This document shows positions 5,837 to 64,000 of a DNA stretch of 64,000 nucleotides, piece by piece. Position numbers and translations under genes: made by a program. This DNA is from a virus. The notes beneath the pieces were generated by a model, which did not search any database, had not been told where the DNA came from, and saw only the letters and a list, made by a program, of their open reading frames with translations. Every line of letters starts with the position of its first letter. Position 1 is the first letter of the stretch. The stretch spans positions 32,001 to 96,000 of IMG/VR virus record IMGVR_UViG_3300035490_000050. The stretch is one strand, 5' to 3'.

Positions 5837-6184
5837 ATGATTCTCAACACGCTAACCCCGGTGAAGTACCCGATCCATACTGGAAACCGTCAGGTTTTTG
5901 TGGGATACGGTAATCCTACTGCTTCTTATAACCAGACCACAGGCGATATTATTTCGGTAAGTTTTATTCCGTTTAATATTGATGCTGTGCTTGGACTTGC
6001 CGTGACGACAGACGGAACTTATATTGGCGTTCCTGTTCCGGTTGGTGGTGTTGCAACTGCGGCAACATGGGCGATTTTCTGGTACACGTTCTCTCTCACA
6101 AGCACTCCAGAATGGGTTCCATTAGGAAGCGGAGCCAGTATCGCAACGAAGTCGGTGCAGTTGACAGTGATTGGTGGGGCTTAA
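5837..6184 (+). CDS. Small virion structural protein
   Basis: Beta-rich 115 aa; AAGGAG RBS; synteny. Confidence 0.65.
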   Translation: MILNTLTPVKYPIHTGNRQVFVGYGNPTASYNQTTGDIISVSFIPFNIDAVLGLAVTTDGTYIGVPVPVGGVATAATWAIFWYTFSLTSTPEWVPLGSGASIATKSVQLTVIGGA

Positions 6185-6324
6185 CGAGTTTCAACACAAG
6201 GTCTGTCTTTCCCTCTCCCGGTGATTGCAGACAATTGACGCCCTCTGTAGCCCCGGAAGGGTAAACTATGGAGGGCGTTTTAAGTCAGGGGCGGTAGAAA
6301 AATCAGAAACAAAGGAGAACTGAA

Positions 6325-6498
6325 ATGCACAGAGGTTTAGGAAAAGCAAAAATTCACAAGGCTTCCGCACCAAGGAACGCTAAGCACACGGTAGCAGCAA
6401 ACCATCATGTCAAGGGTCACAGCACGATTCATGTTCACAAAGGTGGCAAGGGCAAGGGACGCGGGAAGAAAGCATCGCACAAGACGATCCTCAAGTAA
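6325..6498 (+). CDS. 57 aa His/Lys-rich basic microprotein
   Basis: MHRGLGKAKIHKAS...GKGKGRGKKASHKTILK; AAGGAG RBS. Confidence 0.75.
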   Translation: MHRGLGKAKIHKASAPRNAKHTVAANHHVKGHSTIHVHKGGKGKGRGKKASHKTILK

Positions 6499-6543
6499 TG
6501 AGGTATGTCGAATCGAAAGTTCAACAGACGGAAGGGAACAGTC

Positions 6544-6645
6544 ATGGCTAAAAAGAAGGTAGCATCGAAAACAAATCCGTTGTTATCGGAAAAGATACCG
6601 TCCAACAAGAAGAAGGGCGGCAGGAAGCGCGTAGCTGGAAAGTAG
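6544..6645 (+). CDS. 33 aa basic microprotein ending RKRVAGK
   Basis: MAKKKVASKTNPLLSEKIPSNKKKGGRKRVAGK; AAGGGA RBS; alternative in-frame ATG at 6505. Confidence 0.7.
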   Translation: MAKKKVASKTNPLLSEKIPSNKKKGGRKRVAGK

Positions 6646-6652
6646 GTAGCTG

Positions 6653-56332: not shown

Positions 56333-56535
56333 CGAACTAGCGGATGACCGAAGCCACCACCGAAGCCACTAGCCAGCGGGACCAAAAGGTACAGAAGCCA
56401 GATGCAGAATATTACGACGATCACAACTCTGGCGATTTGTGCAAACGGGGCAGGAAGAGGAATCTGAGTGAAAATCCACCAGATCAGGCCGAAGATGATG
56501 CACATTACAAGTACCGTTATCAGCAGAGAAAGCAT
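56329..56535 (-). CDS. Small two-TM membrane protein
   Basis: MLSLLITVLVMCIIFGLIWWIFTQIPLPAPF... Confidence 0.75.
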   Translation of the reverse strand: MLSLLITVLVMCIIFGLIWWIFTQIPLPAPFAQIARVVIVVIFCIWLLYLLVPLASGFGGGFGHPLVR

Positions 56536-56606
56536 GAGGCACCTCAGATTCCATTGAACGCCGATTTGATTGTGTAAGTTGAGCAAAACAGGACAGGAGA
56601 ACGAAA

Positions 56607-56864
56607 ATGGCTTACGAAGAATTTTCACATTACGCCCAAAACCGTACTAGCCTCTGGTGTCCGATCTGCGGAGCTGCGGAAGGAAAGGGATGTAACGAAG
56701 TACACGGACTGCGGTTTTCTGGCCATAATTCCTTCGCGCTAGGACAGGTAAGACAAACTCCATCTGTACTTCACTACTACGACCCGCCAGCGTTCTTGGA
56801 CGTTTACCCTGCGCGTAAGGACAAGCCAAGAATAAGTTCAGGGCTGAGGGGATGGGTAAATTGA
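56607..56864 (+). CDS. Zinc-finger hypothetical protein
   Basis: CPICGA..G..C; CAGGAG RBS. Confidence 0.55.
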   Translation: MAYEEFSHYAQNRTSLWCPICGAAEGKGCNEVHGLRFSGHNSFALGQVRQTPSVLHYYDPPAFLDVYPARKDKPRISSGLRGWVN

Positions 56865-57172
56865 CGAAAAAGAAATTCGAACACGCTCCAGAACTCAACA
56901 CCGATAGTCCTGCTTACGATAAGGTTATTTGTGAGTTGGATAAGATAATATACAGTGACCCGGAAGATGTGGCACAAGAGCTAACGCTCAGAGATGCTTA
57001 TATTTCGATTGAATCTCAGTTGGGAGATTTTATTACCCCGTTTGGAAAGACAAAAGAAGCGCGGCAGGAAGAAGTAAGAAAGTTGTCTGAGGTTTTGCAT
57101 CTGGACCTCACTTTGGGTACGCCAATCTGGAAGATTGTTAAGGACTACGAATCTATGATGAGGGTGAATTGA
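56852..57172 (+). CDS. Hypothetical protein
   Basis: Tiled operon. Confidence 0.6.
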   Translation: MGKLTKKKFEHAPELNTDSPAYDKVICELDKIIYSDPEDVAQELTLRDAYISIESQLGDFITPFGKTKEARQEEVRKLSEVLHLDLTLGTPIWKIVKDYESMMRVN

Positions 57173-57492
57173 AGACCACGAAGACTATTGAGATCACAAT
57201 TTGTGACGTGTGCGGAAACGAGAAGCGGCATCAAGACTGGCCGTGTTCTCGCTGCGGTCGGGATATATGCGATGGATGCGAAGAGCATTTTTACGTTGAG
57301 ATGCGTCACACGTCAAAAGAGAGAACATACGGCTCTGGAATGCGTGGATTTCATACGTCTCATATCGCACTAGGAGACTCAAAGCGTGTATGCAAAGAGT
57401 GCGCTGTGGCTATCGTGGAAGGTTTGAACGCCTTGGGGCTTGTGGGAAAGCCGCAGGATGAAGTAGACAAATTTATGGCGGTTATGGATTAA
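57169..57492 (+). CDS. Cys-rich zinc-binding protein
   Basis: Four CxxC motifs. Confidence 0.65.
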   Translation: MKTTKTIEITICDVCGNEKRHQDWPCSRCGRDICDGCEEHFYVEMRHTSKERTYGSGMRGFHTSHIALGDSKRVCKECAVAIVEGLNALGLVGKPQDEVDKFMAVMD

Positions 57493-57495
57493 CGC

Positions 57496-57524
57496 TTGAC
57501 ATCCATTTGATTCCGTGGGAGTAT
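57496..57524 (+). promoter_or_regulatory. Promoter of tRNA operon 1
   Basis: TTGACA-17-GAGTAT with TG extension. Confidence 0.65.
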
Positions 57525-57534
57525 TGAAACTGAC

Positions 57535-57618
57535 ATGCGATTCCTATTATCCAGTTCGCGCTATTGCCTCTCATCGTTGCTGAGAGCAGGCTCGCCATAT
57601 CTGGATAAAGGGATATAA
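57535..57618 (+). CDS. Attenuator leader peptide 1, MRFLLSSSRYCLSSLLRAGSPYLDKGI
   Basis: Codons match all 10 downstream anticodons; overlaps the antiterminator. Confidence 0.8.
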   Translation: MRFLLSSSRYCLSSLLRAGSPYLDKGI

Positions 57619-57643
57619 GATTTCAGAAATCCAGAGTTTGACG

Positions 57644-57673
57644 AGCCGCTCAGAAATGGGCGGCTTTTGTTTT
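57644..57673 (+). terminator. Attenuator terminator 1
   Basis: agccgctca-gaaa-tgggcggct-tttgtttt, ending 2 nt before the first tRNA. Confidence 0.85.
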
Positions 57674-57675
57674 GT

Positions 57676-57760
57676 GCGAGATTGGCGAAATTGGGAGCCG
57701 CGTCCGATTTAAGATCGGATTCCTTTGGGAGTATGGGTTCAAGTCCCTTATCTCGCACCA
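57676..57760 (+). tRNA. tRNA-Leu(TAA)
   Basis: Cloverleaf; tccga-tt-TAA-ga-tcgga; long variable arm; encoded CCA. Confidence 0.9.
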
Positions 57761-57761
57761 T

Positions 57762-57836
57762 GTACCGGAAGCCAATCGGTTAGGCGGCGGATTGCAGACC
57801 CGCTCTTGGCGAGTTCGATTCTCGCCCGGTACTCCA
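57762..57836 (+). tRNA. tRNA-Cys(GCA)
   Basis: gcgga-tt-GCA-ga-cccgc; U73; CCA. Confidence 0.9.
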
Positions 57837-57847
57837 AGTTTAGTAAG

Positions 57848-57930
57848 GCCCGGATGGTGGAATTGGCAGACACACCAGCTTGAGGGGTTGGCGCGAAAGC
57901 ATACGAGTTCAAGTCTCGTTTCGGGCACCA
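57848..57930 (+). tRNA. tRNA-Leu(GAG)
   Basis: ccagc-tt-GAG-gg-gttgg; CCA. Confidence 0.92.
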
Positions 57931-57931
57931 T

Positions 57932-58014
57932 GGGGTTGTGGCGGAATTGGCAGACGCACCCGGCTCAGGACCGGACGCTTTGGCATAAGAGTTCGACTCT
58001 CTTCAGCCCCACCA
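57932..58014 (+). tRNA. tRNA-Leu(CAG)
   Basis: ccgg-ct-CAG-ga-ccgg; CCA. Confidence 0.92.
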
Positions 58015-58021
58015 TAAGTTT

Positions 58022-58106
58022 GTCGATGTGGCGAAACTGGAAACCGCGATAGGCTCAAACCCTATTGTCTTATGACTTGCCGGTTCGATCCCGGCCATCG
58101 ACACCA
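58022..58106 (+). tRNA. tRNA-Leu(CAA)
   Basis: atagg-ct-CAA-ac-cctat; CCA. Confidence 0.92.
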
Positions 58107-58114
58107 AGTTTTAC

Positions 58115-58204
58115 GGAGACGTGGCACAATGGTACTGCACAGCATTGCTAACGCTGCGATACCCCATAAAGGTATTGGGAGTTCAAGTCTCCCCGTCTCC
58201 GCCA
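58115..58204 (+). tRNA. tRNA-Ser(GCT)
   Basis: cagca-tt-GCT-aa-cgctg; long arm; G73; CCA. Confidence 0.9.
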
Positions 58205-58213
58205 TGTTTTAAC

Positions 58214-58304
58214 GGAAGGATGAGCGGAATTGGTATCGCACTCGCTTGGAAAGCGAGCTTACGTCGAAAGGCGTATGCAGGTTCGAGTCCTGTTCCTTCC
58301 GCCA
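58214..58304 (+). tRNA. tRNA-Ser(GGA)
   Basis: ctcgc-tt-GGA-aa-gcgag; CCA. Confidence 0.92.
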
Positions 58305-58305
58305 C

Positions 58306-58395
58306 GGTAGAGTTGGGCATGGCTGGCAAGCCCACCGCTCTCGAAAAGCGACGTACCGCAAGGTACTGGCAGATCGTTCCTGCCCTCTACCGCCA
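58306..58395 (+). tRNA. tRNA-Ser(CGA), atypical T-loop
   Basis: cgct-ct-CGA-aa-agcg; T-loop ATCGTTC; CCA. Confidence 0.8.
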
Positions 58396-58400
58396 AGTTT

Positions 58401-58490
58401 GGATACGTTAGGCATGTGCCAAGCCTACCCCGTTTGAAGCGGGACGCTCCTGAAAGGGACTTGGGGGTTGAACTCCCTCCGTATCCGCCA
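58401..58490 (+). tRNA. tRNA-Ser(TGA), atypical T-loop
   Basis: cccg-tt-TGA-ag-cggg; T-loop TTGAACT; CCA. Confidence 0.8.
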
Positions 58491-58495
58491 GTTGT

Positions 58496-58586
58496 GCGCG
58501 TGTGGCTCAGTGGCGACGGCGGCAGTCTGTAGAACTGCTACCCTTTGCGGTGAACATCGGTGGTTCGACTCCATCCACGCGCACCA
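58496..58586 (+). tRNA. tRNA-Tyr(GTA)
   Basis: gcagt-ct-GTA-ga-actgc; long arm; CCA. Confidence 0.92.
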
Positions 58587-58588
58587 CT

Positions 58589-58741
58589 CTACTTTGCCAG
58601 CGCCCGTTTTACAGTTCTCTTTTTCTGAGAAACCTTGGTGTAGGGAGTCTGGTTGAGGGCAGGTTTCACTGTTCCTGAGACCTTGTGTTTGGTGTACGGT
58701 TTTTCTTGCAGGGCTGGCTTGACTTCGCGCTTCGTTGGCAT
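58589..58741 (-). CDS. 50 aa basic microprotein with internal VKPALxxxPYTK duplication
   Basis: MPTKREVKPALQEKPYTKHKVSGTVKPALNQTPYTKVSQKKRTVKRALAK; GAGG RBS. Confidence 0.7.
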   Translation of the reverse strand: MPTKREVKPALQEKPYTKHKVSGTVKPALNQTPYTKVSQKKRTVKRALAK

Positions 58742-58800
58742 TGATTCCACCTCATAAACAGATTAGCACAATAGGAATGTGTGGTACAATTCAGGTATTC

Positions 58801-58832
58801 CGTCGTTCCGGCCCGACGTTAAGCAACCGGAA
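58801..58832 (+). promoter_or_regulatory. H-type pseudoknot in 5' UTR
   Basis: cgtcg/cgacg and ttccgg/ccggaa interleaved, just after TACAAT -10 box. Confidence 0.5.
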
Positions 58833-58849
58833 AATCTGAAAGGAAAACC

Positions 58850-59311
58850 ATGAGCAAGATAAAAGGTGTAGACACGTCCGTTTCATCCACCCCAAAATTC
58901 TCACAGAACAAGCCTTCAGGCGATTTCACCCACAAAGACCTCAAGCCGTGCGGAGAAGGCGGTTGTCTCCCACTAGAACAGCCTGTAGGATTCGATGAGG
59001 TTGATATTCCTGAAGTGACCTCTCCTATCCCAACCAACTTTTCTACGGTCGTCCAGATCGTCAACGGCGTAGTAACGCCAACGCTGCAAGTACTGCTCTA
59101 CGATGTACTAAGCGTGATCGACGCCTCAATCCCAAACAAGGATCAGAATCGGGCGGTCAAGAAGTTGATTCACGATGGCTTTGACAAGGCGTATCTGGAC
59201 ATCATCCGAGAAGCCTACCCTGATTCCAACTTTGCAATTGGACCAGGACACGCCTTAACGCCTCTAGCCGACAAGAGTATGGCAATTCAGGCGGCAATCA
59301 GCAAGGTGTAA
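58850..59311 (+). CDS. Hypothetical protein
   Basis: AAGGA RBS; L..IDASI....Q..AVK.LI motif. Confidence 0.7.
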   Translation: MSKIKGVDTSVSSTPKFSQNKPSGDFTHKDLKPCGEGGCLPLEQPVGFDEVDIPEVTSPIPTNFSTVVQIVNGVVTPTLQVLLYDVLSVIDASIPNKDQNRAVKKLIHDGFDKAYLDIIREAYPDSNFAIGPGHALTPLADKSMAIQAAISKV

Positions 59312-59363
59312 AAAGCGCAGAATTATCCTTGACAACTCAGGAAAACGGTAGTACCTTGGGAAA

Positions 59364-59438
59364 TGCGGGTTGGTAGCGCAGTGTCATACGTCAGGCTCAT
59401 AACCTGAAAATCTGGTGCAAGTCCAGTACCCGCAACCA
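59364..59438 (+). tRNA. tRNA-Met(CAT), initiator-like
   Basis: tcagg-ct-CAT-aa-cctga; acceptor end ccgcaacca as in tRNA-fMet; own promoter TTGACA-17-TACCTT. Confidence 0.8.
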
Positions 59439-59646
59439 ATCTGGAGGATGTCATGGGAAATGGCATAATTCCGCATTAGCGGCTAGAAACCGCTAATCAG
59501 TAGAGCGAGAATCCGCTGCGGGAGGTAGTATATGCAGCAGCAGAAAAGGTTGGGGGAGATGGAGAAATCCCTCCCCCAGTCTCACAAGTAAAACGAGGCG
59601 TCGACACAAACCCACGCCTATCGCCTACAAATGAAAGTGGTGTGTT

Positions 59647-60330
59647 TTGAAAATCATCGGCGGTCATGATTATTATGATGTAGCACTGTCGATGGGCATT
59701 GATCCACGGATTGTTCTCTTGCGCGGAAAGAGTAAGAGCATACCAGTAAAGGCTGCTGGCGGGAGTTTGCTTGATCGGTACTTGGAACTCAAGCCACAGG
59801 TTACGTACAACACCTACGGCATAGGAATTGAGAATGTTGCCGTGGCATTTTGTGGGAAGGTTTATCGTGGCGCTGTAGGATTGAAGTCGCTGGAGAAGCC
59901 AGAAGGACTCTGGTCAGCAGATAAGGCAAGAGCATTCGTCGCGCAGGAAAAGAATAGAAAGATTGACGTGGACTCACGGTGGTATGATCGCAGAAACAGG
60001 ATGACCATGGAGGAATATTTCACTCCTTTTGATGCTCCTGATGCTTTGCGGAACTACATGATCGCCAACAAGATTTCGATTCTGGTTGAAGAGCCGCCAA
60101 AGTACCGTGGCGAGGAAAGCTATTTTCAGGTCAATCCTTTCACGCTGAAGCAACTAGGATTCGCAAAGGCTCTTGACCCATACACGGCTTTTCAGGAACT
60201 TTCGATGTGGATCGGTGGAGTTCTTGGGGGAACGAGTCCAGAGATCGTGACGATCAAGGATGACAAGGTTTTGATTGAGAATCACGGGTTTGACAACCGA
60301 TTCTCATTTCGCGGTCCTCGGATCGCATAG
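59647..60330 (+). CDS. Conserved phage hypothetical protein
   Basis: MKIIG..DYYD...LK.LGF.KALDP.TAFQELSMW...HGFD...SFR. Confidence 0.75.
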   Translation: MKIIGGHDYYDVALSMGIDPRIVLLRGKSKSIPVKAAGGSLLDRYLELKPQVTYNTYGIGIENVAVAFCGKVYRGAVGLKSLEKPEGLWSADKARAFVAQEKNRKIDVDSRWYDRRNRMTMEEYFTPFDAPDALRNYMIANKISILVEEPPKYRGEESYFQVNPFTLKQLGFAKALDPYTAFQELSMWIGGVLGGTSPEIVTIKDDKVLIENHGFDNRFSFRGPRIA

Positions 60331-60337
60331 GATTTAC

Positions 60338-60413
60338 GCAACCGTAGCATAGCGGCTAATGTACTTGATTGTCGATCAAGGGTACGCCAGTTCGAATCTG
60401 GTCGGTTGCGCCA
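60338..60413 (+). tRNA. tRNA-Asp(GTC)
   Basis: cttga-tt-GTC-ga-tcaag; G73; CCA. Confidence 0.9.
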
Positions 60414-60428
60414 TAATCTGAGGACGCC

Positions 60429-60935
60429 ATGAGAGATCGCGCAAAGACAATAGCATCTCTCAGACGGCTTATAGAGCGTCCTGGTACGCCGCAGGAAGGC
60501 GAAACAGCAAGACGCCTATTAGAAATGATGGGCGGGAAGGATTGGGTTCCGCGTCCTTTCGATGCAAGCATGTATCCTTGCGGAACTGAGGTTTTCTACT
60601 GCTACTGGACATACGATAACGAACATGGAGTGGTTTGCAAGCAGCCGCCAAAGATAGAAAGAGGCCAATGGTGGATGCGAATCAAATTCGATAAGCTGAA
60701 GCAGCCGCGTTGGGTAGCAGTAACGAGCGAACTTGGATGCCATTTAGGTTTTGAGCCGTTCAAGGGAAACGACAAGGAAGTTCTCTACCATCGGGATATA
60801 GAATGGGAAGAGACGTATCGGAAGATGATTGAAGAATTCAGGGCGCTAGGAATTGACGTAAGCCGACTTGAGCACGAAGAGGTACAAGATGCACGCGATA
60901 CCGGGTTGGATGTGCGGAGTGGACTTCTCCTGTGA
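60429..60935 (+). CDS. Hypothetical protein with DUF2786-like N-terminus
   Basis: I..L..L.ERPGT..E.E.A..LL. Confidence 0.6.
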   Translation: MRDRAKTIASLRRLIERPGTPQEGETARRLLEMMGGKDWVPRPFDASMYPCGTEVFYCYWTYDNEHGVVCKQPPKIERGQWWMRIKFDKLKQPRWVAVTSELGCHLGFEPFKGNDKEVLYHRDIEWEETYRKMIEEFRALGIDVSRLEHEEVQDARDTGLDVRSGLLL

Positions 60936-61176
60936 ATTAGGGGAAGCGAACGGCGGGAATACGATCTATCCGTCAGAGGAAAATCTCCGCGCCAACAGGA
61001 AATGCGTAAATTCCTCAGCGCCAGAGGATAAGATGTGCTACCCTGTTGAAGTCGTCACGATGTCGAAAGAGGACTTTCTTGAACTGGTAGAGAAGGCTGG
61101 CATTGATCCTGCGGCGATTCGGTCAAGCAATTGGGGACCAGCGGTTTGGACGAAAGAACAGGGATTGATTCAGTAG
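60889..61176 (+). CDS. Hypothetical protein
   Basis: GWMCGVDF..ELG...G..IYPS motif; GAGG RBS. Confidence 0.65.
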   Translation: MHAIPGWMCGVDFSCELGEANGGNTIYPSEENLRANRKCVNSSAPEDKMCYPVEVVTMSKEDFLELVEKAGIDPAAIRSSNWGPAVWTKEQGLIQ

Positions 61177-61183
61177 AGTTTTT

Positions 61184-61261
61184 GAGATGGCAGAGTGCGT
61201 TGGTTTGCTCCACGGCTTTTCACACCGTGCCACGCGGGTTCGATTCCCGTCCATCTCGCCA
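61184..61261 (+). tRNA. tRNA-Glu(TTC) with C31-A39 mismatch
   Basis: acggc-tt-TTC-ac-accgt; CCA. Confidence 0.75.
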
Positions 61262-61267
61262 AGTTTT

Positions 61268-61345
61268 GGGGTCACCGTCTAAATGGATTTGGATACCTGA
61301 TTCTCACTCAGGAGATTGCGAGTTCGATCCTCGCTGACCCTACCA
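61268..61345 (+). tRNA. tRNA-Glu(CTC)
   Basis: cctga-tt-CTC-ac-tcagg; CCA. Confidence 0.9.
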
Positions 61346-61423
61346 CAATTCAAGACTCGCGACCTGATCTGAGTCAACGGGCTGGCACGGTGACCAGTGC
61401 ATCAACCGAAAAGGAGAATAACG

Positions 61424-61798
61424 ATGCGTACCCGTTGCAAGTTCAGAGTCGTTGGTATTGAGAGTGTTGAACACGCGATCTTCAAGAAGGTATACAAGGC
61501 CGATGTGAGCGCCGAAGAATATGAAGCGATCACATCTCAAGAGTGGACCGAATATCCTCCCAATCCAGACAGGCGTCTCGGTGGTGGTCCTGAGCCAAAG
61601 TTGTACAAGCAGATATTTCTAGCGAACGCTCAGAATATCCGATTGGCTGCTCAGTACGACCCTTCCATTCCCGAAGATCAGCGGTTCATGGAAGCCACAC
61701 CCTCTGGGGAAATCAAGATGTATATTTCCAATCCCGCAGTGATAAACGGCTTCAAGATCGGAACGAACTACTACGTTGATCTGACGCCCTGCGATTAA
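61424..61798 (+). CDS. Conserved phage hypothetical protein
   Basis: R.KF...F.EATPSG.I.M.I.NP....F..G..YYVD.TP. Confidence 0.75.
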   Translation: MRTRCKFRVVGIESVEHAIFKKVYKADVSAEEYEAITSQEWTEYPPNPDRRLGGGPEPKLYKQIFLANAQNIRLAAQYDPSIPEDQRFMEATPSGEIKMYISNPAVINGFKIGTNYYVDLTPCD

Positions 61799-61820
61799 CA
61801 TTGTCTGCCGTACCAGCACA

Positions 61821-61860
61821 AAAAGAGAAGCCCACCGATGTCTTGGTGGGCCTTTCTTTG
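61821..61860. terminator. Bidirectional terminator
   Basis: gcccacc/ggtgggc hairpin with A-rich and T-rich flanks, between convergent genes. Confidence 0.7.
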
Positions 61861-61886
61861 CACTCCCCTCGTAAGGTGATACCAGT

Positions 61887-62636
61887 TTACTTCTTTGGAC
61901 TTCCCATGTCAACAGGAGCCATCCGACGCGACATTCCTGCCGCTCTCATTGCCCGCACGGGAACGCTCTTGTAGAAGTCGTTCGTCGTTCGTCCAACGCT
62001 TGCGGAGAACGCCATCGTAGCGTGCGCAGTGTTGGCGTAGGCTGCTCTTACATTGCTTTGGTCGAAGACAACCGAATTGGAGAGATTGATGCCCATTGAA
62101 TCTCCAGCCGTGAACGCACTGAGATCAGCGCCGAGGAAGACGAAGGTCCAGTTTCCTTCCTTCTCTTTATTCTCGATCAGTTCCTTGATCTTCGCAAGAT
62201 TGAATTCTCGTGACGAATTTTCCTGCCCGTCCGTCAAGATGACGGTGAGAATCTTTGGCATCATCCCAAGTGACGGAACGCCTGCAAATGATGCTTCGAC
62301 CTTGGAAACAGTGGACCCGATAGCGTCGAGAAGCGCGGTGCCGCCGCATGGAACGTAACTCTGCTTGGTGAGTTCCGGCACCTCAGAGAGAGCGATGGAT
62401 ACGTGACGGTTTTCAAACCGCGTATCGAACAATGTAAGGCTGAAAGCATACGTCGATTTCTTGTCTTTTTTCAACTCACTGATATACGTGTTGAAACCGC
62501 CGATGGTGTCGTCCAAACAGGTAGCCATGGAACCGGACTTGTCGAGAACAAAGTTGATGAGAACCTTACCGTTTTTTGCGGCGGCTGGATTTGACTTCTT
62601 TGCAATCTTCTTTGGTGCGGATTTCTTTGCTGGCAT
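61887..62636 (-). CDS. vWA domain protein with basic N-terminal tail
   Basis: MIDAS motif DKSGSM, GGTALLDAIG, ILTDGQENSS. Confidence 0.9.
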   Translation of the reverse strand: MPAKKSAPKKIAKKSNPAAAKNGKVLINFVLDKSGSMATCLDDTIGGFNTYISELKKDKKSTYAFSLTLFDTRFENRHVSIALSEVPELTKQSYVPCGGTALLDAIGSTVSKVEASFAGVPSLGMMPKILTVILTDGQENSSREFNLAKIKELIENKEKEGNWTFVFLGADLSAFTAGDSMGINLSNSVVFDQSNVRAAYANTAHATMAFSASVGRTTNDFYKSVPVRAMRAAGMSRRMAPVDMGSPKK

Positions 62637-62871
62637 TCGTATTCTCCTGTGCTGCTAACGCGGTTGAAAGTGTTGATTCAGGTACGCGGTAGCACCGCTC
62701 CGCGCCAAGGAAGCTGTAGATTGCAGGTCCAGGTTCACGCCGCGAGTTGTAAACGTCATTCAGATATTGCGGCGAGACACCCATCGTCTGCGCAAATTCC
62801 TTTTGCGTCCTCTCCCCTTGAATCTTCTGCATGATTTCCAAGAGTCCTGCGATATTCGTCACCCTGTACAT
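62566..62871 (-). CDS. XRE-like HTH protein
   Basis: TQKEFA..MGVSPQYL.DV....REPG. Confidence 0.7.
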   Translation of the reverse strand: MYRVTNIAGLLEIMQKIQGERTQKEFAQTMGVSPQYLNDVYNSRREPGPAIYSFLGAERCYRVPESTLSTALAAQENTNASKEIRTKEDCKEVKSSRRKKR

Positions 62872-62933
62872 AAATACTATAATACGCGGATTTGTGGTAT
62901 AATGCAAGTAGAAAGTTTTTGAAAAGGAGTTTC

Positions 62934-63524
62934 ATGGGAGCGAAGCGTTTACCTGCCACCGTAAAAAATCTGACGCCTATGCGTGCTGCATGGCTTGCTG
63001 CTCTGATTGATGGAGAAGGAACAATCAGTATCCACCTAACGCCTAACGGATCAAAACGTGCGTGGATCGCGGTTTACAACACAAACACCGATATTCTTGA
63101 CAAATGTGCCTATGTGTGTGGCGCTGGCGTTGTTCGGAAGAAAATGCCGGGAAAGAAGAATGATGGATTCAAACGATTGCAAATGTGGGAATGGGAACTT
63201 GATAGAGCAAGAGATGCTCACCATCTTCTATGCCAACTTTATCCGTACCTGATAATCAAGCAACACAAAGCAATAGACCTCATTGTTCATTGGAGGGACG
63301 AAAGAACCAACGATATTTCAGAAAACGACCACGACGACGTAAAGGAAATGAAGATGGCGCAGCGTCATTTAAGCAACAGGGAATTTTCGGTCGCACTTGG
63401 TTTCGGATACGGATGCGTCAGCGGAATATATTCTCGGAATGATCCGCTTTCATCGAGAGTCAGAATCGCGTTGGATAAATACAAGACAGAAATGCCAAAC
63501 AGAAAAGAATTATCTTGGCGATGA
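62934..63524 (+). CDS. LAGLIDADG homing endonuclease with C-terminal HTH-like segment
   Basis: WLAALIDGEGTI...NTN...L.PYL.IK. Confidence 0.85.
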   Translation: MGAKRLPATVKNLTPMRAAWLAALIDGEGTISIHLTPNGSKRAWIAVYNTNTDILDKCAYVCGAGVVRKKMPGKKNDGFKRLQMWEWELDRARDAHHLLCQLYPYLIIKQHKAIDLIVHWRDERTNDISENDHDDVKEMKMAQRHLSNREFSVALGFGYGCVSGIYSRNDPLSSRVRIALDKYKTEMPNRKELSWR

Positions 63525-63533
63525 AAATAGTCC

Positions 63534-63562
63534 TTGACAGCGATTCCCATCTGCGCTAAGGT
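63534..63562 (+). promoter_or_regulatory. Promoter of tRNA operon 2
   Basis: TTGACA-17-TAAGGT; ATG 7 nt downstream, so leaderless. Confidence 0.7.
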
Positions 63563-63569
63563 AGAAAAC

Positions 63570-63650
63570 ATGAAGACGCGATTCCAAAACGCCAATCCAA
63601 CAGCGACGGCAACGCCGCAGGGTCATGGTGCGGAATCAGGGTCTCAGTAG
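63570..63650 (+). CDS. Attenuator leader peptide 2, MKTRFQNANPTATATPQGHGAESGSQ
   Basis: Contains CAA, CAG, AAC/AAT and GGT/GGG matching the downstream tRNAs; 3' end pairs with the terminator arm. Confidence 0.75.
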   Translation: MKTRFQNANPTATATPQGHGAESGSQ

Positions 63651-63683
63651 GATTTTTACTCGCATAGAGCGAGTAAAACTGAA

Positions 63684-63724
63684 GAGGCCCGGTCCAAAGA
63701 AGCGGATCGGGCCTCGGTGCTTTT
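63684..63724 (+). terminator. Attenuator terminator 2
   Basis: gaggcccggtcc/ggatcgggcctc 12 bp stem then ggtgctttt (imperfect U tract). Confidence 0.7.
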
Positions 63725-63732
63725 AGGGATGT

Positions 63733-63808
63733 TCCACGGTCGTCTAACTGTGAAGACACCGAACTGTTAATTCGGGTAATGCAGGTCAGAATCCTGCCTG
63801 TGGAGCCA
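63733..63808 (+). tRNA. tRNA-Asn(GTT), atypical T-loop
   Basis: ccgaa-ct-GTT-aa-ttcgg; T-loop TCAGAAT; CCA. Confidence 0.85.
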
Positions 63809-63817
63809 GTTTGAAGT

Positions 63818-63893
63818 TGGGGAGAAGTTCAACGGGTGGAACAATCGGCTCTGACCCGATAGGCAGAAAGTTCGAGACTTTCCTCCCCAGCCA
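63818..63893 (+). tRNA. tRNA-Gln(CTG)
   Basis: atcgg-ct-CTG-ac-ccgat; U1-A72; CCA. Confidence 0.9.
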
Positions 63894-63900
63894 AGATCGT

Positions 63901-63974
63901 TGCCCGTTCGTTCAACGGTAGGACACCGCCCTTTGGAGGCGAGGATGGCGGTTCAAGTCCGTCACGGGTAGCCA
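63901..63974 (+). tRNA. tRNA-Gln(TTG)
   Basis: cgcc-ct-TTG-ga-ggcg; CCA. Confidence 0.9.
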
Positions 63975-63981
63975 AATTAAC

Positions 63982-64000
63982 GCGGGCATAGCTCAGTGGT
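63982..64000 (+). tRNA. 5' fragment of a tRNA, probably Gly (cut by window edge)
   Basis: gcgggcatagctcagtggt acceptor and D-arm start. Confidence 0.55.

Follow-up and report, generated by a model that had tools for sequence, protein, structure and literature searches.

A probable codon-sampling leader-peptide attenuator of a ten-tRNA operon in an uncultured phage

We analysed a 64,000-nucleotide stretch of viral DNA (hereafter the window), which corresponds to bases 32001–96000 of a 136,454-bp phage genome (IMG/VR record IMGVR_UViG_3300035490_000050) with 50% G+C and 31 tRNA genes by ARAGORN. Between 57496 and 58586 of the window a promoter, a 27-codon open reading frame (ORF), an intrinsic terminator and ten tRNA genes follow one another on the plus strand, and we refer to the ORF as leader A and to the tRNA genes as operon A. 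These four parts had been recognized in a preliminary description of the locus, and all of them were confirmed from the sequence, by ARAGORN and by folding.

The sigma-70-type promoter (57496–57524, plus strand), as read from the sequence, has a −35 box TTGACA at 57496–57501, a 17-nt spacer with an extended −10 TG (TGg) at its end, and a −10 hexamer GAGTAT at 57519–57524. The built-in promoter scan did not list it, and its −10 box matches only 3 of 6 positions. The leader A ORF (57535–57618, plus strand) begins with an ATG 10 nt after this hexamer and comprises 27 sense codons followed by TAA (57616–57618). The leader mRNA is probably leaderless or nearly so, with transcription starting at or within a few nucleotides of the AUG; only transcripts begun at this promoter would therefore be translated. 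The intrinsic terminator (57643–57675, plus strand) consists of a 10-bp stem (57643–57666) closed by a GAAA loop and followed by TTGTTTTGTG, a T-rich tract that extends to 57675. In isolation it folds at −16.7 kcal/mol, and the first tRNA gene starts 9 nt past the stem.

ARAGORN at its default setting finds nine tRNA genes in 57676–58586 and the tenth, Ser(tga), at a threshold of 85%; the Rfam tRNA model scores eight of the ten, missing Ser(cga) and Ser(tga). All lie on the plus strand in the order Leu(taa) 57676–57760, Cys(gca) 57762–57836, Leu(gag) 57848–57930, Leu(cag) 57932–58014, Leu(caa) 58022–58106, Ser(gct) 58115–58204, Ser(gga) 58214–58304, Ser(cga) 58306–58395, Ser(tga) 58401–58490 and Tyr(gta) 58496–58586. 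Ser(cga) and Ser(tga) are of unusual form. The latter has a counterpart at the same array position in a metagenomic relative (locus L134, see below), where Ser(tga) is called by default.

Codons 4–16 of leader A (57544–57582, plus strand) read CTA TTA TCC AGT TCG CGC TAT TGC CTC TCA TCG TTG CTG, a run in which every one of the ten anticodons encoded downstream is represented by a codon, with CTA and one Arg codon in addition. It had been proposed that 12 consecutive codons of the leader include one for every tRNA of the array, and the run at 57547–57582 does serve all ten anticodons, 11 of its 12 codons being cognate. To place this figure we scored every 12-codon segment in six frames of the whole genome for the ten operon A anticodons. 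Under strict decoding full coverage was reached by a single segment out of approximately 272,838, the one starting at 57547, which is located 94 nt upstream of the tRNA array; two segments reach nine anticodons, both overlapping it, and six reach eight, of which three overlap leader A and three lie at one other locus. When U34 was also allowed to read G, two segments reached ten, both inside leader A. A further test held the leader peptide (five Leu, five Ser) fixed and drew its codons by the phage's own usage; leader A uses nine of the nine Leu/Ser decoding classes (P = 0.004). The codon–anticodon correspondence is thus far beyond chance, and chance was rejected as an explanation of the match, which is unique among the segments scored.

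Relatives were recovered with a conserved 102-aa protein encoded 3.3 kb downstream (60868–61176), which has 42 homologues; an alignment of 23 of these led to 34 metagenome and 4 viral loci. The ORF at 57169–57492, when used as the probe, gave seven spurious loci, all devoid of tRNAs. Among these loci, 17 include 80 nt or more ahead of the first Leu/Ser-type tRNA; an ATG leader, the terminator and the codon run are kept in 16 of the 17, and the frame, start and stop of leader A are likewise retained in 16; the ORF is therefore conserved in homologous arrays, as had been anticipated. The shared layout is promoter, ATG, Leu/Ser(/Cys/Tyr) run, terminator and first tRNA. Besides that of the window there are eight distinct leader sequences (L135/136, L134, L139, L142, L008, L147, L153 and L152), in which the order of the codons within the run differs. 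Leaders of full arrays, that is, those with Leu, Ser, Cys and Tyr tRNAs, read MNFT-LSSRLSSLSYLLC in L134, MKT-LSLSSCLYLSSS in L139, MENT-LSLSLSSYCLSL in L142 and MKN-LCLSSLSYSSLL in L008, and that of L135 is window-like; reduced arrays (Leu-tag, Ser-gct, Ser-aga) have the leaders MPRLTPSSSSLLSDR (L147 group), MTRLMLSSSSLLSDR (L153) and MTRLMLSSLSLLSDR (L152). Permutation of the codon order with the set kept nearly constant points to selection for the codons that are present and not for the peptide.

Within each locus, the segments that best cover its own anticodons tend to fall inside the leader: 2 of 2 in L134, 3 of 3 in L135, 3 of 3 in L008 and 7 of 8 in L139. In L142 the leader holds 2 of the 10 best-covering segments, at 8/9 coverage. 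The leaders of full arrays use 8–9 of the 9 Leu/Ser decoding classes (P = 0.003–0.07 each), and those of reduced arrays 6–7 (P = 0.19–0.39). When odd tRNAs overlooked by the finders are counted in the arrays, the run of each of the six leaders of full arrays has a single TAT and a single TGC, and neither a Tyr nor a Cys codon occurs in any of the three leaders of reduced arrays. The gaps of the reduced arrays contain small ORFs; neither Rfam nor ARAGORN at 70% found hidden tRNAs there. Odd-form Ser tRNAs (in one case Cys) missed by Rfam and default ARAGORN lie at 58306–58490 in the window, 3567–3750 in L008, 5556–5746 in L142 and 4060–4148 in L139, and their array position is kept across relatives.

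The promoter layout is shared as well. TTGAC(A/G), a spacer of 17 nt and a hexamer whose second base is A and whose sixth is T precede 16 of the 17 leaders of type A and of the type B described below; 14 of these were parsed by script, and those of the window and L135, mis-parsed there, were read by eye. The ATG lies 6–10 nt past the −10 box, again in 16 of 17. The promoter spacer of the window also carries a conserved TGATTCCGTG at 57508–57517, which occurs once within the window; a similar motif is found in the same place in L134, L139, L142 and L008, and in L008 it recurs at 2647, ahead of a small gene. Such a motif exceeds what a sigma-70 promoter needs and may be an operator for a regulator.

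The design recurs twice in the same genome. Leader B, with 26 codons and the sequence MKTRFQNANPTATATPQGHGAESGSQ, occupies 63570–63650 of the window within an attenuator region at 63534–63732, and its ATG comes 7 nt after a TTGACA-17-TAAGGT promoter. It precedes tRNA genes for Asn, Gln, Gln, Gly and Thr, an HNH gene, and then tRNA genes for Thr, His, Ala, Phe, Pro and Arg. Leader C, MQTTTRRGTITRMTKRVIWGIVREGWDD, lies at 100646–100732 of the genome, 4.6 kb past the end of the window, and precedes tRNA genes for Trp, Met, Lys, Lys, Val, Thr, Ile and Gly; a −35 box of the TTGAC(A/G) type was not found in front of it. Of the anticodons in sets A, B and C, respectively, leader A serves 10/10, 5/11 and 2/8, leader B 2/10, 11/11 and 3/8, and leader C 0/10, 6/11 and 8/8. 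The match of leader to operon is strictly diagonal for three leaders and three different tRNA sets. Leaders B and C are hydrophilic in make-up, quite unlike A, and match their own tRNA sets. B-type leaders are conserved and, at loci with the complete array, cover from 9/9 to 11/12 anticodons. No leader precedes the isolated Asp and Glu tRNA genes. A filter for leaders based on a T run fails to pick up B and C. At the end of operon B (genome 97379–97452) ARAGORN calls a tRNA with the anticodon tca, a UGA reader labelled SeC, which may be a suppressor tRNA.

That leader content should follow array content was an expectation of the preliminary description. By amino acid it does, in the joint absence of Tyr and Cys codons and tRNAs and in the three diagonal leaders; a strict match of isoacceptors did not emerge. 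The leader thus tracks its array by amino acid, and the isoacceptor match is loose.

The RNA of the leader region can fold in mutually exclusive ways. In the minimum free energy (MFE) fold of the window, region 1 (57540–57554, plus strand) pairs with region 2 (57601–57614, plus strand; CTGGATAAAGGGAT) as helix 1:2, and the terminator (helix 3:4) forms alongside it (z = −2.85); the 1:2 domain in isolation folds at −28.7 kcal/mol. Region 2 has an alternative partner at 57629–57635, and the antiterminator (2:3; 57589–57647, plus strand) combines GGCTCG (57589–57594) with CGAGCC (57642–57647) and TCTGGAT (57600–57606) with ATCCAGA (57629–57635), folds at −22.3 kcal/mol and uses 5 nt of the terminator 5′ arm. 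The helices 1:2, 2:3 and 3:4 located by the preliminary description are all exact complements, and the alternative structures fold in the way it set out. Among nine leaders folded, the terminator is present in all and helix 1:2 belongs to the MFE fold of seven. Region 1 includes the conserved motif (T/C)(C/T)CAGTTCG; in the RNA, (U/C)(C/U)CAGUUCG is found in all leaders, its partner close to the stop codon being CUGGA or CUGAG. The pair shows a compensatory change, as it is TCCAG:CTGGA in the window and CTCAG:CTGAG in relatives. The core CAGTTCG (57550–57558) resembles the start of the T arm (AGTTCG) of the phage's own tRNAs, which may be chance or a trace of the origin of the leader. The antiterminator pairs vary yet stay complementary (GGCUCG:CGAGCC in the window, GAGGGC:GCCCUC in L139, GAGGCU:AGCCUC in L008), and this complementarity exceeded that of shuffled sequences in four of eight leaders (P = 0.001, 0.002, 0.008 and 0.029), with P = 0.001 for the window.

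We simulated a translating ribosome by masking an assumed footprint at each codon in turn and computing the equilibrium thermodynamic fold. The predicted terminator probability in the window drops from 0.97 to 0.01–0.5 when A-site codons 5–11 are masked, and it is 0.97 again beyond the run and at the stop codon. Masking of at least one codon of the run brings it below 0.35 in seven of the nine leaders, and the lowest value for the window is 0.01. When the RNA was cut before the terminator 3′ arm, the 5′ arm was predicted to be paired with a probability of 0.76–0.92 in all nine leaders if the ribosome stood in the run, and of 0.23–0.69 if it stood at the ORF end or stop. A ribosome on the stop codon would cover most or all partners of the terminator 5′ arm in seven of the nine leaders; those of the window and L135 would have the inner helix covered instead. 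By inspection of the sequence, the same geometry, in which fast translation leads to termination, recurs in leader B.

Taken together, these observations make it probable that leader A belongs to a ribosome-mediated (leader-peptide) transcription attenuator, leaderless and codon-sampling, which makes the ten-tRNA operon demand-driven. Transcription would begin at or within a few nucleotides of the ATG, and a ribosome would load on the 5′ end and read through the run, with about one codon for each Leu or Ser isoacceptor plus one for Cys and one for Tyr. Slowing at any codon of the run would hold the ribosome on region 1, so that the 3′ part of the ORF could pair with the terminator 5′ arm as antiterminator, and RNA polymerase would continue into the tRNA genes. 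If decoding were fast, the ribosome would cover the 5′ strand of the antiterminator and reach the stop codon, the terminator would form, and transcription would end 9 nt before the first tRNA. Without translation, as when polymerase reads in from genes upstream, both helix 1:2 and the terminator would form and the default would be off. Since the operon yields the very tRNAs that would relieve the stall, tRNA supply would be under a negative feedback driven by demand. In this model it is presumed that the leader is translated, and the polarity of the switch, its OR-gate behaviour and its physiological trigger, which may be anticodon nucleases or uncharged tRNA, are likewise presumed.

Parts of the stretch are represented in RNA libraries: five runs include 5–14% of the sampled words, and a 212-nt contig of an L135-type variant, which extends from leader codon 4 across the terminator into the first tRNA, offers weak evidence of a transcript. 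The RNA contigs, which come from four runs, cannot show starts, ends or levels, and the parts that they leave uncovered are not evidence.

Several observations weigh against attenuation by a codon-sampling leader. The 212-nt contig may stem from DNA in the library. The leader A ATG is preceded by no Shine–Dalgarno sequence, which would count against its translation, and such sequences were detected before 67 of 136 long ORFs of the phage compared with 29 of 136 control windows; a leaderless start would explain the lack, and that start is itself read from the −10-to-ATG spacing. Agreement between leader and array is imperfect: the leader of the window carries CTA and its array has no Leu-tag tRNA; the TCC and TCG codons of L139 have no gga or cga tRNA to match; L142 has a gga tRNA and a leader without TCC or TCT; L147 has TTA and TCG without the matching tRNAs; and L135 has the leader of the window while Leu-tag replaces the gag and cag tRNAs. 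In L141 the expected ATG reads AAG. All relatives belong to one phage lineage, and the joint loss of Tyr and Cys is a single evolutionary event. With a single codon per isoacceptor, sensitivity is low compared with that of his or thr leaders. On the structural side, L139 and L152 show no loss of the terminator at equilibrium under masking, and stalls at the last four run codons of the window leave its predicted probability at 0.71–0.94; the codons of the run are thus not predicted to be equally effective. The complementarity of the antiterminator is marginal against shuffles in L134 (P = 0.07) and L008 (P = 0.125) and no better than shuffles in L153 (P = 0.46) and L152 (P = 0.55), and in only four of eight rows does the cognate pairing rank first.

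It may be that the leader is translated and relevant and acts with another polarity or mechanism, either because a stall leads to termination or to exposure to Rho or RNase, or because translation opens helix 1:2 for constitutive early read-through. The polarity proposed above is drawn from thermodynamic folds with an assumed ribosome footprint, and the two leaders that lack a predicted equilibrium switch, L139 and L152, would fit such an alternative. We nonetheless consider it unlikely, given that in seven of the nine leaders a ribosome on the stop codon would hide the strand that pairs with the terminator 5′ arm, as in the classical arrangement where rapid translation leads to termination, and that leader B repeats this geometry; a design in which stalling terminates would, moreover, lower tRNA output just when tRNA is short.

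We give very little weight to each of two further explanations. The triplets of the run are complementary to the anticodons of the operon and no Shine–Dalgarno sequence is present, as might be expected of a ribosome-free RNA element that, like a T-box specifier, would pair its triplets directly with the anticodons of free tRNAs and so set the balance of terminator and antiterminator. Yet no T-box (RF00230) or other riboswitch family matches at E ≤ 1 in 56500–64000, the triplets follow one another without gaps in the reading frame of a conserved ATG 6–10 nt past the −10 box, a conserved in-frame stop overlaps the antiterminator strand, and ten tRNAs would be unable to occupy adjacent triplets together; the idea is accordingly most improbable. 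An equally slender chance attaches to a functional Leu/Ser-rich micropeptide, in which case the hairpin would merely terminate the upstream genes and the agreement between codons and tRNAs would be coincidental. Short ORFs rich in Leu and Ser are common, these amino acids having six codons each, and the plus-strand genes upstream of leader A end at 57492 and need a terminator. This account is opposed by the conservation of composition and codon set and not of peptide sequence, by leaders B and C, which differ in composition and match their own tRNA sets, and by the uniqueness of the run site in the genome. The gap of 9 nt between terminator and first tRNA, which leaves no room for a promoter of the array's own, also speaks against it. 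Attenuation through decoding of the codon run remains by far the preferred interpretation.

Multivalent leader-peptide attenuators of enterobacterial amino-acid operons include thrL (Thr and Ile) and ilvL and ivbL (Leu/Val/Ile); trpL, hisL, leuL and pheL are further leaders of such operons. Like the thrL/ilvL class, the element described here has a promoter, a short ORF with codons for more than one amino acid, exclusive 1:2, 2:3 and 3:4 helices, a terminator and regulated genes, and a ribosome stalled for want of charged tRNA is predicted to select the antiterminator. Unlike in that class, tRNAs rather than biosynthetic or aminoacylation enzymes are regulated, so that the product would act directly on the sensor; each isoacceptor is sampled about once, with no repeated codon; and the ORF appears to be leaderless and has no Shine–Dalgarno sequence. 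The pheM leader of the pheST operon is an attenuator of an aminoacyl-tRNA synthetase operon. It resembles the control proposed for operon A in attenuating a component of the decoding machinery with feedback via the supply of charged tRNA, and differs in being a sensor of a single amino acid with repeated Phe codons, a Shine–Dalgarno-led ORF and protein genes. T-box riboswitches likewise set the choice between terminator and antiterminator by the state of a specific tRNA via codon–anticodon pairing, but in them one uncharged tRNA is read directly by a structured RNA without a ribosome. The Rfam leader families (Leu, His, Thr, Trp and Phe leaders) gave no match at E ≤ 1 in 56500–64000.

The general principle of such attenuators is treated in PMC1183508. 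In mycobacteria, polycysteine leaderless short ORFs are reported to be cysteine-responsive attenuators (bioRxiv 10.1101/834739). They appear similar to leader A in that a regulatory short ORF at a leaderless 5′ end senses the decoding of particular codons, and appear to differ in having one amino acid, repeated codons, protein-coding operons and a bacterial rather than viral setting. The trn operon of Anabaena sp. PCC 7120, a 26-gene tRNA array, is reported to be silent until translation is impaired and to be controlled by the repressor TrcR, acting on direct repeats over the −10 box and transcription start (PMC8421152; PMC10272220). As in our proposal, an accessory tRNA array is switched on under translation trouble; unlike in our proposal, the reported response is not codon- or isoacceptor-specific. 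The terms 'leader peptide', 'attenuat' and 'terminator' each have 0 occurrences in PMC8421152. The Anabaena operon is the nearest published case of stress-induced tRNA arrays, and mechanistically the thr and ilv leaders and the mycobacterial polycysteine ORFs are closest. The preliminary description had been aware of no leader-peptide attenuator on a tRNA operon, and full-text literature searching found none that controls tRNA genes.

The question of why phages carry tRNA genes, and how these are expressed, has of late been connected with host defences that cleave tRNAs. The three leaders divide 18 amino acids among three tRNA operons, with the Asp and Glu tRNAs apart, and it is conceivable, although we hold it a shade less probable than not, that together they constitute an isoacceptor-resolved surveillance of decoding. 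A slow codon would turn on the operon with the missing tRNA and the new tRNAs would turn it off again, the slowing being due to a tRNA-lacking host, to host shut-off or to an anticodon-nuclease defence. Were this true, the circuit would constitute an undescribed class of self-regulating viral tRNA supply with a built-in answer to tRNA-targeting immunity. An attenuator of the kind proposed for leader A, with its sensor spelled in codons of the tRNAs under its control, would mean that a phage gauges the speed of decoding codon by codon and supplies tRNAs on demand. Leader-peptide attenuation, familiar for fifty years from amino-acid operons, would thereby be extended to RNA genes, leaderless transcripts and a design with one codon per isoacceptor. 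At approximately 180 nt, the element could serve as a compact natural biosensor for single tRNA species. The design is not universal, given that a crude survey of 21 tRNA clusters (14 in T5, 7 in DSS3_MAL1) did not find a matched leader, the best candidate having 13 of 51 codons readable.

Judged by its proteins, the phage is a member of an uncultured lineage with no cultured relative, because its major head protein matches only two Tunturiibacter phages, at 25% identity, and few of its genes match PHROGs. Comparison of the flanking genes with PHROGs and Pfam returned no informative names, and a blastn search with 57300–58700 against 50,697 phage records yielded short tRNA matches only, in 7 records. 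Other tRNA-like sequences occur nearby: 61268–61342 scores 46.6 bits with the Rfam tRNA model without an ARAGORN call, in a place where relatives have Glu(ctc); 59369–59434 is a weak match of 22.8 bits; and with ARAGORN at 90% a Met(cat) appears between Tyr and Asp. The reduced arrays hold a conserved small Cys-rich ORF (CKLCGKLSY... type) between their Ser tRNAs (L147 3027–3198, L153 700–870, L141 6553–6723). In L135, whose leader is near-identical to that of the window, a 549-nt insert (6098–6646) with an HNH-type endonuclease ORF lies between tRNA-Cys and tRNA-Leu(tag), which suggests that the arrays are remodelled by homing elements.

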